From Methanocella sp. (GTDB lineage: Archaea; Thermoproteota; Bathyarchaeia; Bathyarchaeales; Bathycorpusculaceae), in assembly GCA_050261115.1 (NCBI GenBank), contig JBLNCY010000046.1, positions 1 to 64,000 of the forward strand: a DNA stretch of 64,000 nt, read 5' to 3'. Below, one piece after another: positions 32,064 to 64,000 of the stretch; within the stretch, counting starts at the first letter, position 1; each line of letters opens with the position of its first letter. The notes beneath the pieces are model-generated. The model did no database searches. It worked only from the letters and a program-made list of their open reading frames with translations, and was not told the origin of the DNA. Position numbers and translations under genes: made by a program.

Positions 32064-32370
32064 GGGCTGGTGTGTTGGCAGTAACCCGCCTTTTGTTGTT
32101 TGTGGCATTCGGCTAATCGGGCTACCCGCGCCTTCCGGCAGATTCTTCATCGGCGTCTGTTTGCCCTTTCCACTTGCAGGACGGCCGTTTCACCGTTTCC
32201 ATTCCAGCGGACTCTGCATCACTAATGCGTCATGGCCATTTCTGGGTGGACGTTTCGTTTCTGCTCCGTTGCCAGACCTCTCGGTCTGTCCCAGGGGGAC
32301 TGCAATTCTGCGTGTGGGCGGAGTTTCCTCACCCCAGAGGGGCGACAGCCACGCACCAACTCACCAGCCC
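32064..32370 (-). ncRNA. rnpB: archaeal RNase P RNA
   Basis: Terminal P1 helix GGGCUGGUG/CACCAGCCC; CR-I GAGGAAACUCC; ...GCAGAAAC...GGUGAAACGG...; CR-V AACAAAAGGCGGGUUA. Confidence 0.95.
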
Positions 32371-58137: not shown

Positions 58138-59382
58138 CTATGCTTCGCGGACAGCGGGCTCATGCACCCGTAAAAGGACAAAAAGCGAGAGCGGAACCAT
58201 AGCTATCGCGAACAGCAAAAAGGGCAACTGCGGAGAAACATAGAAGTAAATCGCACCCACCGTGACCTGCAGAAGCCCTTGCATAAGAAACGCAAAGAAC
58301 TGCAGGCAGCCGGTGGCGGTTCCCCTGACATTTCGAGGAATCAGGTCGCCTAGCAGGACTTGGTAGCTGGTTAACTGTAAAAGGTTCCCTAATCCAAAGA
58401 AGAACAAGGATAACAGCATCAGGTTAAAGTCGGCGTTTATGAAAAGCAGCGTCCCAGGGATAAACAGCAGATAGCCCAGTATAAGGAAGCGTTTTCTACC
58501 AAATGCGTCGATGCTAAAGCCCGCTATTATGCCGGGAATTGCGATTGAGAGGTAGCGGAAGGCGGTTGCAATCGCCCACTGGTCTAGCGTCAGGCTGAGG
58601 ACTTTTGTGGCGTAGACTACAAAGTACATTTGACAAGAAACAACTAAGCCATTCACGATTATGATGGCAATGAAGAGGTAGAAAGCGGACCGAGGCAATT
58701 TACTCCAAACGCATAAGCTCTCTTTAACCGCCTTGGGGTAGACTCGTACGCCGTCTAGGAAGGTGAAACGTGCTTTCTCGCCGTTTGGGGGCAGAGTTTC
58801 GGTTAATCGCAGCCTCAAAACCGCCACCGAAAAATACGCAGCCGTAACAATCGTGTAGGCGATACGCATGCCCAAATCGAAATTAAAAGCGCTGACGAGA
58901 TACCCTGCGATTAATGGTGCGGGGAGAAGTACTATTGTGGTTATTACTGACTGGAAGCTAAAGCCTGCCCCGCGGCGCTCAGAGGGCAATGAGTCGATAA
59001 TCATCGCCAAGAGGGCGGGTCCATACATCGAGCACACATTCTGAATAAGTAATCCGATGAGGATGAATTCCCATGAGGGCGCCAAAACAAAAAATAAGCT
59101 CCCGATGGCTAAGCCGAAAGTCATGGTTACGATAATCCATCGCCGGCCATGCTTATCAGCCAAGTATCCGCCGGGGAACTGGACAAAGGCAACTGCAAGT
59201 GAACCTACAAACGCCATAAGGGAAATCGTGAATTCGTTTGCGCCAAGGCTGAGGTAGTAGAGGCTTGCGTAGGTGTCAGGGATAGGCTGGGCGGTGAACA
59301 TTATTATCCAGCTTATGGTGATGAGTAGAAAGTTGCCTCTAAGGATAGCTTGGTCTCCTCGGAAGAGCGCTGACAAATTCAT
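58138..59382 (-). CDS. MFS transporter
   Basis: 12 TM; GGYLADKHGRR motif A. Confidence 0.92.
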   Translation of the reverse strand: MNLSALFRGDQAILRGNFLLITISWIIMFTAQPIPDTYASLYYLSLGANEFTISLMAFVGSLAVAFVQFPGGYLADKHGRRWIIVTMTFGLAIGSLFFVLAPSWEFILIGLLIQNVCSMYGPALLAMIIDSLPSERRGAGFSFQSVITTIVLLPAPLIAGYLVSAFNFDLGMRIAYTIVTAAYFSVAVLRLRLTETLPPNGEKARFTFLDGVRVYPKAVKESLCVWSKLPRSAFYLFIAIIIVNGLVVSCQMYFVVYATKVLSLTLDQWAIATAFRYLSIAIPGIIAGFSIDAFGRKRFLILGYLLFIPGTLLFINADFNLMLLSLFFFGLGNLLQLTSYQVLLGDLIPRNVRGTATGCLQFFAFLMQGLLQVTVGAIYFYVSPQLPFLLFAIAMVPLSLFVLLRVHEPAVREA

Positions 59383-59479
59383 TGCAAATAACTTGGCTGT
59401 GAATTATTTAAATTCGCTTACAAAGCCTCTAGGTTTAATATCTAACTATAATTTGAACCCGCAATTCTTAAATTAAAGT

Positions 59480-59990
59480 GAAAAATGTCCCTTTAGCTTC
59501 TGTCCCTTTCGTTTTTATTGGCGCTTTACTCTTTAGCTTCTGTTTAAAAACGCTAATGCGACGCTTAAACAGCGTTAAAGCGTAAAGCGCCACGTATGGC
59601 TCCCTAAACGTATCTTTAAGCGCTAAAATTGCTTAAAATTACTTAACGTTAGCGGACGCTATCTTCAAAACGTATAAGCGCTTTAACTCGCGCAACAGTT
59701 TGGTCAGTAAGCGTATTAGCTGGCTATCGCTATCACAAGCCGAGTTCCAATCTGCACCGCATATAACAGGCGTTAAAACTTAGCCGCAAAAAGCGCCCAT
59801 AAGTCTTTACACCGTCTAAGTAAAAGCGCTACCATTACCCATCTCGCCTAGCTTTCCGATATTCTAGTAAATTTCGCTCTACGGCTTAGCGGTTAAACCG
59901 TAACAAACTCCGCGTGTTAGCTCTCTCCAATTTTTTATTTTACACAGCTTTGGTCACACCGACCTTAGCGTAAACCGTTTAAAAAGTTGG
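59480..59990 (-). ncRNA. candidate large structured non-coding element (RNA or folded ssDNA), unknown class
   Basis: No ORF of 60 aa or more; successive stems at 59519-59592, ~59616-59683, 59685-59746, 59792-59830 and 59880-59902; most wobble positions favour the minus strand; TATA-like TTTTTAAA at ~59978-59985. Confidence 0.5.
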
Positions 59991-60092
59991 TAAACTTGCA
60001 AACCACAAAAAACCTTGCTATCCAAACCAAAAACCGTTCAGTTTTCTGCATTCCAAGAAACTTAAAATATCCAGCGCAAGAAGGGAGACAAA

Positions 60093-60356
60093 ATGTTTGA
60101 GTACCGCCACAAAAACCGAAAATACATCATCATAGAGGTCGCCGACATATTCTACGCTCAAAACAAAGCCGAAGAAATTCCTGACGAAACACTTCAACCA
60201 GACGAATACAAAGCTTGGGAAAAAGTCGAGGACAGGGCAGCCCGCAAAGTAATACGTCGTATAATACAAAAAGCTAAGAAAGAAAACTTTGTCCTGAAAC
60301 GTTTCCTAAACAATCAACAAGCTGACCAGATAGCCAAAAAACCTCTATCGCTGTGA
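60093..60356 (+). CDS. small charged hypothetical protein upstream of the integrase
   Basis: 87 aa; GGGAG RBS; same strand as the integrase, 47 bp upstream. Confidence 0.7.
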   Translation: MFEYRHKNRKYIIIEVADIFYAQNKAEEIPDETLQPDEYKAWEKVEDRAARKVIRRIIQKAKKENFVLKRFLNNQQADQIAKKPLSL

Positions 60357-60403
60357 TTGAACGGCGTGTACCTTCTAATTTTTGTTGATAGAGGTGCCCG
60401 CTA

Positions 60404-61516
60404 ATGAAGACAAAAGCAGTTCAAGACTTCCTTGACTATCAGACAAACAACGGAACTGAAAAAGCATACAAGAAAAGCGTTTCTATGTTCATCCAGTACC
60501 TCACAGAGAAGCTCGAATACCCCGTAACAGGCGACGAGATTATAGCTCGACGTAGAATCGACGTTAAATCCGAAACCTACGAGATGGAAAACACTATAAT
60601 GCTTTTCAAGCAATGGGCAAAGCTTCAGCCTCTAGAATCAAACCCAGACGAAACCGTATCCGAGCGTACAGCCGTTAATTGGAGAGTCGGCGTTAGAGCC
60701 TTCTTCGCCTACCACCGCCTAGATCTAAAACTCAGACGTATGGAAAACAAAAAACTACAAAGCGCAGTGGCCAGAACGGAGAAGTACAAGTTCTCAACCG
60801 AAGACCTGGAAAAAATGGACAAGTACGGCGACGTTACCGAAAAATACGTTATTCGAGTCGGAAAGAGCTTAGGCTTACGTAACATCGATTTTAGACGCCT
60901 AAAGCGGGGTGATGTCGAGCCATACATTAACCGTCCAGCACCTGTCTGCATCGGCCCCTACATGACAGTCAAAGAACACGTCAACGCCTATCCCTTTCTT
61001 GACAACGACGCCATAGAAATAATAAAACTACGCCTCGAAGAAATGAACCATAAAGGCAAAACCAAACCCAGTGACAGATTATTCACTCAAAACCCCAAGC
61101 AGCTTTCCCGTATTCTAAGAAAACTCTGTGACTTAGCAGGCATAAACACAGGCGACAAACAAGTAAAGTTTCACTGCCTAAGAGCGTTTCTTTGCGACAA
61201 ATTAGCAGGCTACATGTCAGAGTCCAAATGGAAACAAATCGTCGGCAAAAAGATTTCCGAAGGCGCATATGTTGGTCCAGACGAGCTACAGAAAGACTTC
61301 CAAAGAGCAATGCCTGATTTCCAGCTCACTAAAGCACAAAACCAAGAGAACATCGAGCAACTGGTTAAGCTACAAATTCTGAAAAACCAAGCCAAAGACT
61401 TAGGATTAGACATTGAAAAAGTGTTCCGGCTCCGAAACACCGTAAGCGTTCCAGAGCAGATAGAAGTCTTAGAATACATAACTTCAGAAAACCAAACAGT
61501 TGGTGCTGTCTGCTAA
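60404..61516 (+). CDS. tyrosine recombinase/integrase (last codons supplied by the IS)
   Basis: Core-binding T...Y/RAFF, catalytic R (SLGLR), K (TVK), HCLR, VGK in place of the second H/W, Y (GAY). Confidence 0.9.
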   Translation: MKTKAVQDFLDYQTNNGTEKAYKKSVSMFIQYLTEKLEYPVTGDEIIARRRIDVKSETYEMENTIMLFKQWAKLQPLESNPDETVSERTAVNWRVGVRAFFAYHRLDLKLRRMENKKLQSAVARTEKYKFSTEDLEKMDKYGDVTEKYVIRVGKSLGLRNIDFRRLKRGDVEPYINRPAPVCIGPYMTVKEHVNAYPFLDNDAIEIIKLRLEEMNHKGKTKPSDRLFTQNPKQLSRILRKLCDLAGINTGDKQVKFHCLRAFLCDKLAGYMSESKWKQIVGKKISEGAYVGPDELQKDFQRAMPDFQLTKAQNQENIEQLVKLQILKNQAKDLGLDIEKVFRLRNTVSVPEQIEVLEYITSENQTVGAVC

Positions 61517-62872
61517 TCGGTTAACTTTTTGGGCTGAGTTGAGTCCATCCTATGTTATCGACCAAGAAAACAAAGGAATGGAACCCAATGATTTCAGTCC
61601 AAACAAAAGTAGAGATACAAGGCGATTTAAGCCTTGCCAACATATCAAGAGAACTAGAAAAAACAAACATTCCAAAAGAGATCCTTAAATCAGCCATAGG
61701 AAAGCTTCAAGATGAGCTCTTGTTACAGCTATGTGGTCGAAGATACCAAAGAGACCGAGATAGAAAGTTCATCCGAGTAGGAAGTACAAATAGAACACTC
61801 AGCACAAGGCATGGCAGAATAGAATTTAGGCTTACTAAAGTACGCTGCTTAGAGAATGGCTCTATCATGCGACCTTTACTTTTGTACGTTGGAGTTGAGC
61901 CAAAGAAGAGAATCATTGATGATCTAACCTTAGAATGTGCAGAAATAGCCACTTACCTAACCTACCGTGACTCCAAAACAGTGATTGAGAACCTCACAAA
62001 CGCACATGTGTCTAAATGGAGGGTTCATGAATGCGTTCAAAGAGTAGGCGATTTTATGAATAGTGAAAGGAGGAAGTCGCCTATGAAAAGCCAAGATTTG
62101 ATCGAGGGCGATGGGACTAAATGTCATAGCTTGGGTGGAAAGAAGAATGAAATCAACGTTATTTTAGGCAAGGACCAAGCTACGGGAGAGAAGAGCCTTT
62201 TAGGGCTTAGTGTAAACGAGGATTGGAAGACTACACTGAGTCAGTTTAAGGGTAGGGCTAAAGTAGCTGTTTCTGATAATGAGCCTTCTTTGAGGAATGC
62301 TCTTTTAGAAAAAGCGTTTAGTTATCAAGCTTGTATTCGCCACTGCGCTGGTGATGTGAGGTTCTATTTATGGAGTGCAAAGGTGCCAAAGAATCAAAGA
62401 GATAAGTTGGCAGCTAAACTTGAAGGTATTTTGGAAATCTTGCATAATTCTGTTAATAAGCACCTGGTTGATGGTGATTTTGGGAGGTTGGAGTGGAGGA
62501 TTAATTTGACGCTTTCGGAGCTTGGGGTGTTTAGTAGGGAGCTGCTTGAGGCCGGGTTGCCTGTTGTTGCCCGTTTCGTACGGAATGCAGCCAATTACAT
62601 GGTTACTTATGCAAGGTTAGCGATGAAGGGAGCTCAAATTCCTATGACGAATAATTTGATTGAGCGTTTGATGGGTGAAGTTGCTAAGAGGGTTAAGCAT
62701 AAGTGGATGCATTGGAGCACTAGGGCTCTTGAGAACTTGCTTAACATTTTGTTGGCTAGGTACTGTAATAGGCGTGTTTATGGTGAGTTGAAAGAAAGGT
62801 ACTTAAGATCAAAGGTGACAACCATTCGAATAGCGATAACATAGAAAAGCTAGCCGATTAGAAGACACAACC
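61502..62872 (+). mobile_element. ISH6-like insertion sequence, 1371 bp
   Basis: Terminal IRs GGTGCTGTCTGCTAATCGGTTAACTTTT versus reverse complement GGTTGTGTCTTCTAATCGGCTAGCTTTT; imperfect 8-bp TSD AAACAGTT (61494-61501) / AAACAATC (62873-62880). Confidence 0.85.
61552..62844 (+). CDS. DDE transposase (ISH6/UPF0236, Mutator-like)
   Basis: R.L.T..G.I, TYR, DGT, VSD.E, Q.C..H, TNN.IER.M motifs. Confidence 0.9.
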   Translation: MLSTKKTKEWNPMISVQTKVEIQGDLSLANISRELEKTNIPKEILKSAIGKLQDELLLQLCGRRYQRDRDRKFIRVGSTNRTLSTRHGRIEFRLTKVRCLENGSIMRPLLLYVGVEPKKRIIDDLTLECAEIATYLTYRDSKTVIENLTNAHVSKWRVHECVQRVGDFMNSERRKSPMKSQDLIEGDGTKCHSLGGKKNEINVILGKDQATGEKSLLGLSVNEDWKTTLSQFKGRAKVAVSDNEPSLRNALLEKAFSYQACIRHCAGDVRFYLWSAKVPKNQRDKLAAKLEGILEILHNSVNKHLVDGDFGRLEWRINLTLSELGVFSRELLEAGLPVVARFVRNAANYMVTYARLAMKGAQIPMTNNLIERLMGEVAKRVKHKWMHWSTRALENLLNILLARYCNRRVYGELKERYLRSKVTTIRIAIT

Positions 62873-63181
62873 AAACAATCAAAAGCGCTTGCAGCGGTTT
62901 GGGCTGCATATGACGCTTTAACAGCGAAACTTGGAATCCATGCAGATTGGCCTCCCACCAAAGTAATTAACTTCGATAGGCGAACCGTTGAAAGGATTGC
63001 CAAGATAGTTAATGATCCAGAACTGTTTAGACTCTATGACTTAGCCACTGATTTAGACGCAATTGACGCTGGAAAAGCCTGTTGGTACGCAAAACATTTC
63101 ATCGAAAAGGTGAAAGAACTGTTGCCAAAAGTAACTCCGATCGAGCAGGAACTGGCAAAACCTTCTGCATATATCACATAA
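62873..63181 (+). pseudogene. start-less ~100-codon open frame, helical, HEPN/PaREP1-like
   Basis: KQSKALAAVWAAYDALTAKLG...VERIAKIVNDPELFRLYDLA.DL......ACWYAKHFIEKVKELL...; no suitable in-frame start. Confidence 0.5.
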
Positions 63182-63292
63182 CAAAAAACACTTACAAGTC
63201 AGACAAACACACTCAAGGATTACAAGCCAAGAGGCGCTGATAATGTTTTTCTAAAAAAAGATAGGGGAAGTGTATTTTCCTATGTTGGTGTT

Positions 63293-63904
63293 TTATGGCT
63301 CTGGTGCTTTTGTTGGGCTTGGCAGGACAGGAATCGTTTGGGAAGTGTCTAGTGGCGCTTTTGAAGGGCCTGGGCTAACCGAAAGTTCTTGGTTACCTAT
63401 GGGCAATCTTGTTTGAGTTCCATCGCCATTGTATACTATGTGAAATGCGTCGCCTAGCATTAAAATAATGGCTTCTGATCTATTGTCGTTCAGGAAATAA
63501 ATGGATCGTCCAATTCCGCTACCGCCAACAAAGTCTGGTGCACCTACAATCTTGTTGAACTCGCTTTCTAAAGCGCTCACGCCTTTACTGTTATATAACT
63601 CTCCTGCCTGTTCAGCACTTAATCTTGGTGTATCTTTTGGTAGGTCTCCAATAGTAATAAGAACAGGTCGTCTCCATTCGCCTGGTAAACCAATGCTATT
63701 GTCTGCAATGATTTTGTCTAGTTGTCCTTTCTGCTCACTTGTTGCTTTAGCATATGCTAACTCGTAGAAAGATGCACTCGATGCAGGGGTTGCTTCTTGT
63801 CCTAAAATCCAATCGGATGTAGCAGAGACAGCTAATATACCGCCAAATAATGTCCCAACTGCAACGATTGCGAACACCATCATGATTTTTCTATTTTTCA
63901 ACAT
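63293..63904 (-). CDS. secreted hypothetical protein
   Basis: Signal peptide; GAPDF.GGSG..R..Y.L motif; Pro-rich tail; AAGGAG RBS. Confidence 0.75.
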   Translation of the reverse strand: MLKNRKIMMVFAIVAVGTLFGGILAVSATSDWILGQEATPASSASFYELAYAKATSEQKGQLDKIIADNSIGLPGEWRRPVLITIGDLPKDTPRLSAEQAGELYNSKGVSALESEFNKIVGAPDFVGGSGIGRSIYFLNDNRSEAIILMLGDAFHIVYNGDGTQTRLPIGNQELSVSPGPSKAPLDTSQTIPVLPSPTKAPEP

Positions 63905-64000
63905 GTTCCATAAGCTCCTTTATTACTTGTAGACCCAAAGGATATAGTATCCAGTATGCTGATTCATTTCAGTTAGGCCAATATAGTATGTCGAACCTGC

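Follow-up and report, generated by a model that had tools for sequence, protein, structure and literature searches.

A gene-free, motif-dense left arm of a small integrated tyrosine-recombinase element in an uncultured archaeon

Locus and element boundaries

Positions 59480-59990 of a 64,000-nt window (the whole stretch of DNA that was analysed), taken from the 66,953-nt contig C46 of the genome under study (G000; 2.15 Mb, 95% complete), are part of the gene-free left arm of an integrated tyrosine-recombinase element carried by a low-GC island. An earlier note, made from the letters alone, had described them as a densely folded element of about 500 nt, of no recognised class, and as a large structured non-coding RNA (ncRNA), probably on the minus strand. 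The features of the junctions and of the arm are given below, with their basis in brackets.

59464-59473, no strand: left copy of the 10-bp direct repeat ATTCTTAAAT, the att core at attL (alignment A3 and exact 10-mer count)
59474-60092, no strand: non-coding left arm of 619 nt, containing 59480-59990 (no open reading frame (ORF) of at least 60 aa; single copy in the genome; GC drop)
59486-59543, plus strand: junction-proximal direct repeats, with three copies of the TGTCCCTTTAGCTT family and two of the exact 13-mer CTTTAGCTTCTGT, 40 nt apart (repeat search)
59519-59592, no strand: imperfect palindrome or hairpin of 74 nt with about 29 pairs (inverted-repeat search and folding z)
59560-59574, plus strand: 15-mer GACGCTTAAACAGCG, inside the 3' arm of the palindrome (exact match to GACGCTTWAACAGCG)
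59576-59970, no strand: dispersed GCGC-centred motifs in both orientations, a 13-mer family approximating TAAGCGCTTTAAC (word counts, genome-wide outlier)
59585, 59618, 59676, 59791 and 59824, no strand: AAGCGC copies (word positions)
59649, 59886 and 59965, no strand: TTAGCG copies (word positions)
59927-59990, plus strand: second hairpin, whose 5' arm is the T6AT4 run and whose 3' arm has the TATA-like GTTTAAAAAG (inverted-repeat search and folding z)
59958-60092, plus strand: promoter-proximal block upstream of ORF87, with TATA-like boxes at about 59975-59985 and 60059-60068 and GGGAG before the ATG (comparison with the homologue L046)
62912-62926, plus strand: second copy of the 15-mer, GACGCTTTAACAGCG, just beyond an insertion sequence (IS) on the far side of the recombinase gene, int (exact match to GACGCTTWAACAGCG)
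65311-65320 of C46, outside the window, no strand: right copy of the 10-bp direct repeat ATTCTTAAAT (alignment A3 and exact 10-mer count)

The arm fills most of a gap of about 710 nt, free of ORFs of at least 60 aa, between an MFS transporter gene (58138-59382, minus strand) and ORF87 (60093-60356, plus strand). Of the 29 same-genus genomes with the MFS gene, 22 have a CDF transporter gene 71-609 nt from it in divergent orientation; the distance in G000 is 5,969 nt, and between the two genes lies the 5.85-kb island (59474-65310, its end beyond the window), with a GC fraction of 0.39-0.47 as against 0.45-0.52 outside and a drop that spans 59001-65500. In alignment A3, which sets intergenic DNA from eight relatives beside both G000 junctions, host homology ends on the left at ...GCAATTCTTAAAT and restarts on the right at ATTCTTAAATCG..., breaking exactly at the two copies of ATTCTTAAAT, a 10-mer with exactly two occurrences on the contig, one per junction. 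From this break and from the adjacency of the flanking genes it follows that 59480-59990 falls in the left arm (the first 517 nt of the island), beginning 7 bases past the left junction and near the tyrosine recombinase gene. An insertion relative to the relatives' arrangement, bounded by a direct repeat, is what was found, as expected of an integrated element. A 3.9-kb gap between the two host genes in genome G064 was considered as a related insertion and rejected, having a different arrangement and normal GC content.

The earlier note had offered a folded single-stranded origin or an att arm as its alternative, which came close as regards context. In recombination sites of the integron attC or CTX-phage type the crossover lies within the hairpin or at its edge. 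Here the att repeat, taken as the crossover marker, stops at 59473, 46 nt short of the hairpin at 59519, and a site of that type was rejected on this ground.

The run A.TCTTAAAT is the sole invariant one in the relatives' intergenic DNA and lies about 35-45 nt before the CDF start codon; this block, and with it the att core, would be the TATA box of the promoter of the host CDF gene. The upstream half of the host promoter and the TATA-like core are now directed, at attL, into the element, and a T5 run at 59511-59515, about 40 nt downstream of the core, may stop read-through; at attR the CDF gene retains the core and its upstream DNA now comes from the element. No tRNA gene was found in the window.

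Motifs and inverted repeats of the arm

The composition of the arm was assessed with a motif set of eight 6-7-mers (AAGCGC, TAAAGCG, TTAGCG, TAAGCG and their complements), which gave 20 hits in 59501-60000 as against 0-5 in all other 500-nt bins of the contig. Across the genome, in 8,495 half-overlapping 500-nt windows, the flagged stretch scored 17 and 20 and the next best window 8, and AAGCGC was present in 7 copies against 0.44 expected. The unusual composition remarked on in the earlier note is therefore borne out, and is a genome-wide extreme. The array is restricted to the arm, with the addition of two copies just past int; two GCGC copies stand at 62883-62890. The words are half-palindromic (..AAGCGCTT..; family approximating TAAGCGCTTTAAC) and present in both orientations, and much of the apparent pairing in the stretch arises because such a motif recurs in this way. 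The repeats are 6-13 nt long, irregularly spaced and in both orientations, and are not the regularly spaced direct repeats, next to AT-rich DNA for unwinding, of an iteron-type origin.

The 74-nt hairpin that the note had described, with its arms and inner helices, is present at 59519-59592, as are the smaller helices it listed. When folding was scored as a z value against dinucleotide shuffles, the palindrome alone (59517-59594) reached -6.95 on the plus and -5.07 on the minus strand as RNA, and -5.03 and -5.45, respectively, as DNA, with 0 of 200 shuffles as good in each case; its excess folding as DNA is symmetric between the strands. The 15-mer in its 3' arm has two exact matches to GACGCTTWAACAGCG and, when up to two mismatches are allowed, three occurrences against 0.26 expected, a number reached in 0 of 100 shuffles. 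As a direct repeat, GACGCTT(A/T)AACAGCG brackets the motif array together with orf87, int and the IS.

The second hairpin (59926-59990) folds at z -5.30 on the plus strand as against -1.62 on the minus strand. Archaeal RNA polymerase stops at oligo-T runs, and archaeal TATA boxes stand at a set position relative to start sites; the T6AT4 run at 59932-59942 is a possible stop signal on the plus strand, and the two arms of this hairpin would then serve as terminator and promoter. An A/C-rich run at 59992-60040 (CAAACCACAAAAAACC...CCAAACCAAAAACC) has short matches in 13 same-genus genomes and was rejected as a shared element, as the matches are different low-complexity stretches.

Sequence conservation in the homologous lineage

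A scan of metagenomes by protein identified one close lineage, represented by the loci L046 and L047 (99.9% identical to each other); a further locus, L048, was irrelevant at 30% identity. L046 aligns to 59567-61501 at 92.1% identity and L047 starts at 60166. Both have TGA for TGG at codon 42 of ORF87 (655-657 in L046), and int of L046 has a 5-nt deletion, for which reasons the lineage is probably a dead copy of the element. L046 and an RNA-library contig of run X12 both start within a few bases of the palindrome loop (59558-59567), a coincidence that may be accidental, may come from assembly across an inverted repeat, or may mark a real end.

Divergence between the arm and L046 decreases from left to right, from 0.176 (59567-59657) through 0.14, 0.083 and 0.08 (59758-59957) to 0.03 in the promoter-proximal block (59958-60092; 4 mismatches in 134 aligned positions), as compared with a synonymous divergence of 0.20-0.28 in two genes. 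The arm contains perfect blocks of 36-45 nt that hold motif copies, and none of the 32 substitutions right of 59640 falls in the motif copies there (47 positions; a post-hoc count, p of about 0.01). A decayed gene was rejected, since the substitutions show no codon phase (15, 14, 10).

Pairing was assessed by placing the 39 substitutions of L046 on the minimum-energy structure of the G000 arm and comparing the outcome with random nearby placement. The arm gave z -0.37 on the plus strand, where 35% of random placements were as good, and +0.61 on the minus strand; the sense strand of the G000 RNase P RNA, compared with three relatives of similar divergence, gave -2.76, -1.28 and -2.91, so that the test detects RNase P in two of three comparisons. 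The 394 nt of L046 equivalent to the arm fold like shuffles (z +0.44 on the plus and +1.35 on the minus strand). Predicted plus-strand pairs in L046 comprise 83 unchanged, 7 with a one-sided change kept and 6 with one broken, 3 with a double change kept and 3 gapped, and those of the minus strand 93, 6, 17, 2 and 4, respectively; A59930T breaks one pair of the second hairpin. Homologues, which the earlier note had proposed to look for, were found in one lineage, in which neither fold nor base pairs are protected; with a single, decayed homologue such tests of RNA conservation are low in power. The pattern suggests that constraint on the arm acts at the level of sequence and not of pairing.

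A related region in a second element

The nearest relative of the recombinase is found in genome G110 (43-45% identity), where it lies close to the left boundary of an approximately 11.6-kb low-GC island. An unbiased scan for locally enriched 6-mers returned AACGCT, with 8 copies against 0.83 expected in a gene-free region of 1,050 nt about 4.6 kb downstream of int (L069:11032-12082; G110:C1 ~79,030-80,080); the region is rich in AAACGCT, AAAGCGCT and TTAGCG words. With the motif set derived from G000, this region gave 9 hits per 500 nt, the top value among seven loci and above any G000 window outside the flagged stretch; words common to it and to the arm are ACGCTTAAAC, AAGCGCTTTA and AAGCGCTAAA. 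Convergent gene blocks stand on either side of it, and it follows, after about 1.2 kb, the gene of an AAA-type ATPase of 375 aa that has a MarR-like winged helix at its C terminus. At the protein level the G000 and G110 elements overlap in the recombinase only. No homologue of the ATPase was found in the G000 genome, and no att repeats of the G110 island were found by a simple exact-word search. The motif link between the arm and the G110 region is suggestive; the shared recombinase favours recombinase sites, and the internal position by an initiator-like gene favours an origin.

Interpretation of the arm

The explanation that we tentatively prefer, while giving it somewhat less than even confidence, is that the arm is cis-acting double-stranded DNA, with protein sites that would assemble or regulate recombination, control int expression, or both, and is not an RNA gene. 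The GCGC-centred motifs (approximating TAAGCGCTTTAAC) and TTAGCG would be putative sites for a sequence-specific protein, the candidates being the recombinase, the 87-aa protein and a host factor. These putative sites and the 74-bp palindrome could jointly build a recombination complex at att, control the orf87-int promoter at the right end of the arm, or do both. The apparent dense RNA folding would then result incidentally from half-palindromic sites that recur in both orientations and from two real inverted repeats. The motif array is unique in the genome, and blocks holding motifs are conserved while pairs are not spared, which favours the DNA reading over an RNA.

Several observations weigh against this explanation. 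The choice of binder is a guess. The homologue does not cover the left 93 nt (59474-59566, including the 5' arm of the palindrome), and within the aligned part the 3' arm of the palindrome (7 differences in about 24 positions) and the two motif copies in 59576-59626 change about as fast as neutral sites. Damage is apparent in both known copies of the element, in the form of an IS in int here and of the stop codon and 5-nt deletion in L046/L047. The other six related loci have no such array within about 6 kb of int. The G110 motif region is well inside its low-GC island and not at the island's end. Its motif similarity to the arm exceeds background only moderately, and its shared 9-mer score of 26, top of 364 windows, is matched by the background, where the maximum is also 26 in 4,193 G000 windows and five windows reach at least 23.

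A replication or partition origin is the strongest of the other explanations, and is itself unlikely. The motifs would be initiator sites, and the palindrome with the AT-rich stretches would serve for unwinding, nicking or as a single-strand origin in the excised circle. A long palindrome with dispersed two-orientation repeats in gene-free DNA is consistent with this proposal, as is the G110 region, which folds alike on both strands (z -2.90 and -2.93) and whose internal location, between convergent blocks and near an ATPase of initiator-like build, fits an origin or internal cis element better than an att arm. Precedents are the origin of the pleolipovirus SNJ2, described in the available part of its source as a hairpin with an adjacent inverted repeat (PMC13107129), and the repeats of the Methanosarcina plasmid pC2A, for which the available text records a proposed role as single-strand origin (PMC9569500). 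Against an origin stand the short and irregularly spaced repeats, unlike classic iterons, and the fact that the two elements share only the recombinase. Library scans of the island ORFs found no Rep or initiator family, in an island disrupted by an IS from which such a gene may have been lost, and the G110 ATPase has no detected counterpart in the 95%-complete G000 genome.

Folding and transcription

More doubtful is a plus-strand structured RNA, that is, an ncRNA or leader of about 440 nt that would begin at the TATA-like att core, end at the T6AT4 run and regulate orf87-int or recombination. The whole stretch 59480-59990 folds at z -4.10 on the plus and -2.02 on the minus strand, and the strong second hairpin is confined to the plus strand. 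The claim of dense folding over about 500 nt was not confirmed, as without the big hairpin (59593-59990) the values are only -2.14 and -1.74; the comparison with shuffles on each strand, which the earlier note had suggested, thus supports the hairpin on both strands and leaves the rest marginal. The preference for the minus strand claimed there was likewise not confirmed, the plus strand being better overall; only the small helix at 59878-59904 favours the minus strand (z -3.70 against -0.92), and C59898T in L046 breaks one of its central pairs there.

The three pair-keeping double changes on the plus strand all belong to a single helix (59729-59736 / 59914-59921), located in a hypervariable patch. 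L046 alters 7 of the 8 left bases and 7 of the 8 pairs are still possible; its own minimum-energy fold pairs these bases otherwise, and the two double changes kept in the minus-strand prediction fall in the same patch. The helix is at most a weak hint of structure on the plus strand. The placement value of -0.37, set beside those of RNase P, argues against such an RNA, as does the fold of L046 at z +0.44.

Rfam 15 gave nothing in 59480-59990 at gathering score, the sole match across the window being the archaeal RNase P RNA (RNaseP_arch, 32070-32364, minus strand, 190 bits); a search of 59300-60200 with E up to 10 returned three hits, all with E of at least 2.5 and far under gathering. The family scan that the note had proposed therefore yields no known family. 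Guide-RNA-like complementarity of the arm to the attB/attP flanks was looked for and rejected, with one 8-mer only, about the number expected by chance.

In sequencing data, 11 DNA runs from five studies contain 94-97% of sampled words of 58200-61500 and six RNA-library runs 6-11%, and the island DNA is found in digester, soil, bioreactor and biofilm metagenomes. Four RNA-library runs were mapped over a 5-kb stretch, most of which was uncovered in each, a lack that carries no information. RNA-library contigs from two of the four runs cover 59560-59847 (X12, depth 4.4) and 59385-59535 (X16, depth 2), in keeping with a transcript, as would be a TATA-like box that, with the host's upstream sequence, appears to face the arm at attL. 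The neighbouring aspartyl/asparaginyl-tRNA synthetase and MFS genes have the same depths in these runs (2.9-4.6 in X12 and 2 in X16), and the excess of transcript expected of a stable structured RNA was not seen in contigs that give neither strand nor ends and may derive from carried-over DNA. With no Rfam match, no sparing of pairs, shuffle-like folding in L046 and no such excess, the large structured ncRNA of the earlier note, probably on the minus strand, finds no support.

An RNA-library contig of run X14 (depth 2.3) runs from 60265 back into 60005, a backward jump of 261, and the two sides have 7 letters in common where they meet. Position 60005, about 20-25 nt past the TATA-like GTTTAAAAAG, may mark the start of the orf87 transcript, in which case the junction would be an artefact of template switching; circular RNA and tandem duplication are also possible.

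Two bolder proposals, jointly given only a slim chance, are that the motif array and palindrome of the arm form a trans-dependent origin- or packaging-like site common to a family of archaeal elements, with the G000 element, which has a recombinase and no initiator, a satellite that uses the ATPase-winged-helix protein of a G110-type helper, or that transcription from the captured host TATA box yields a plus-strand RNA of about 440 nt that links integration state with expression of the recombinase. Least probable of all is a largely functionless spacer, decaying or rearranged filler of a defective element with its motif richness left by history such as small duplications, to which the damage in both copies, the divergence of 0.14-0.18 in the left part (near the synonymous rate) and the lack of anything similar in 119 same-genus genomes or in plasmid and phage collections would be agreeable, and against which stand the right 335 nt (0.03-0.08 against a synonymous 0.20-0.28, with their perfect motif-holding blocks), a palindrome far beyond chance and a motif density unique in the genome.

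Distribution of the arm and of the recombinase

The arm DNA was searched for in its own genome, where it is single copy with nothing beyond itself, in 40 relatives, with no match, and in the 119 same-genus genomes, with only chance or low-complexity matches of 18-36 nt and one 151-nt match at 66%, which is host intergenic DNA left of the junction. No match was found in the plasmid and phage collections, nor with exact 20-22-mers from the conserved blocks in viral contigs. The same exact-word search of genome contigs gave a 23-nt match in an unrelated metagenome-assembled genome, read as chance given its dissimilar flanks. Peptide-pattern scans of genome and viral contigs, and tblastn in plasmids and phages, found no homologues.

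Relatives of the recombinase at 37-45% identity occur in the genus, and 25 of 100 genomes have a match at E of 0.001 or below. The 1.5-kb flanks of 19 weaker recombinase-match loci show no similarity to the arm, and the architecture upstream of int varies among the ten closest of these (34-43% identity, tblastn). A cluster of AATTTTGC in L051 was considered as a motif array and dropped, as it lies inside an ORF. McrA (PF02249) was not found in the 95%-complete G000 genome, and the organism is probably a non-methanogenic archaeon.

Genes carried by the island

The genes and remaining DNA of the island within the window are as follows.

60093-60356, plus strand: ORF87, 87 aa (nonsynonymous divergence, pN, 0.029 and synonymous divergence, pS, 0.28 against L046)
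60404-61516, plus strand: int, a divergent tyrosine recombinase of 370 aa (phrog_216 integrase, 2.7e-6; fold search)
~61501-62872, plus strand: ISH6-family IS, with its transposase at 61552-62844 (NF041731 ISH6 transposase, 2.3e-114; ends by homology to copies on C45, C49 and the C46 end)
62873-64000, no strand: remaining low-GC island inside the window, including the gene of a 203-aa predicted membrane or secreted protein (63293-63904, minus strand) (GC content, ORFs)

The recombinase has pN 0.023 as against pS 0.20 in the comparison with L046, and from these ratios both ORF87 and int appear to be under strong purifying selection. For ORF87, no family was found above noise in Pfam, NCBIfam or PHROG and a protein-atlas search gave no usable match; a single-sequence AF2 model (pLDDT 62) predicts two helices and is uninformative.

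Pfam Phage_integrase matches two of the 11 recombinase members (best E 0.0019) and does not recognise the G000 protein itself. Because a profile of the family found nothing among PDB sequences, a fold search was required; an AF2 model from the 11-sequence alignment (pLDDT 81.7) matched XerA (1.8e-5), the integron integrase IntI (2.9e-4), lambda Int, XerH and Cre in Foldseek. Residues R159, H257-x-x-R260, W276 and Y289 are invariant in the 11 sequences, and R159, H257, R260, W276 and Y289 we take to be the tyrosine-recombinase catalytic set. A predicted tyrosine-recombinase fold with these residues thus lies beside one end of the island.

The IS at about 61501 replaces the last codons of int. 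ISH6 makes an 8-bp target duplication, and the presence of AACCAAACA on both flanks suggests a simple IS insertion. No more than 3 nt separate the insertion point from the end of homology to L046/L047, and past the IS the DNA is unrelated to theirs. The contig closes, at C46 66746-66953, with part of a related IS in inverted orientation (85% identity). In total, what remains of the island codes for two predicted secreted or membrane proteins, for which no families were found.

Comparison with known systems

In lambda-type attP, arm sites flank the crossover core and the whole site is about 240 bp. The G000 arm resembles lambda-type att arms in being non-coding DNA beside the core and int, with short repeated sites in two orientations and a flanking short direct repeat, and differs in reaching about 620 nt on one side, in a target that is a promoter TATA-like box and not a tRNA gene, and in a recombinase that Pfam misses. 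GOLLD, ROOL and HEARO are large structured RNAs of mobile elements, contained in Rfam; the arm shares with them several hundred gene-free nucleotides with predicted helices in a mobile element, and differs in having no Rfam 15 match and no conserved folding in the homologue.

Archaeal tyrosine recombinases are described, in the available part of one source, as having att identities that can be as little as 8-13 bp, and targets in intergenic DNA, a range that includes the 10-bp core found here (PMC8371274). The plasmid pC2A, as far as the available text describes it, has gene-free DNA by ssrA with long direct repeats and a perfect inverted repeat, which are dispensable for replication and were proposed to serve SsrA or a single-strand origin (PMC9569500). 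pC2A and the G000 element are both small archaeal elements in which gene-free repeat DNA flanks a tyrosine recombinase gene; on the same partial account pC2A has RepA and plasmid replication (PMC9569500), unlike the G000 element, which is integrated and in which no Rep gene was found. The arm DNA and the recombinase protein had no match in the plasmid collection, in which the inclusion of pC2A was not confirmed. SNJ2 is likewise a temperate archaeal element with an integrase, whose cis element of hairpin and palindrome, about 40 nt in length and situated downstream of the Rep-Arvir gene, is tied to excision in the available account (PMC13107129). No such Rep was found in the G000 island, and the G000 region is more than ten times longer.

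The arm is best regarded as another instance of the cis-acting non-coding arms known from integrative elements. The statement that it belongs to no recognised class therefore holds for the sequence, which matches nothing described, in comparisons that did not include a literature search aimed at this element; it does not hold for the kind.

Significance

These results remove a candidate for a new class of large ncRNA and illustrate that repeated half-palindromic sites, here putative sites for a protein, can mimic dense RNA folding. They also document a small integrative element of an uncultured archaeon found widely in metagenomes from digesters, soil and biofilms, with a recombinase too divergent for Pfam, a 10-bp att core that appears to be a TATA-like box of a host promoter, and a long, motif-dense cis region. 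If the motif array binds the recombinase or the initiator of a helper, it would provide a handle on the recombination or replication of minimal archaeal elements.

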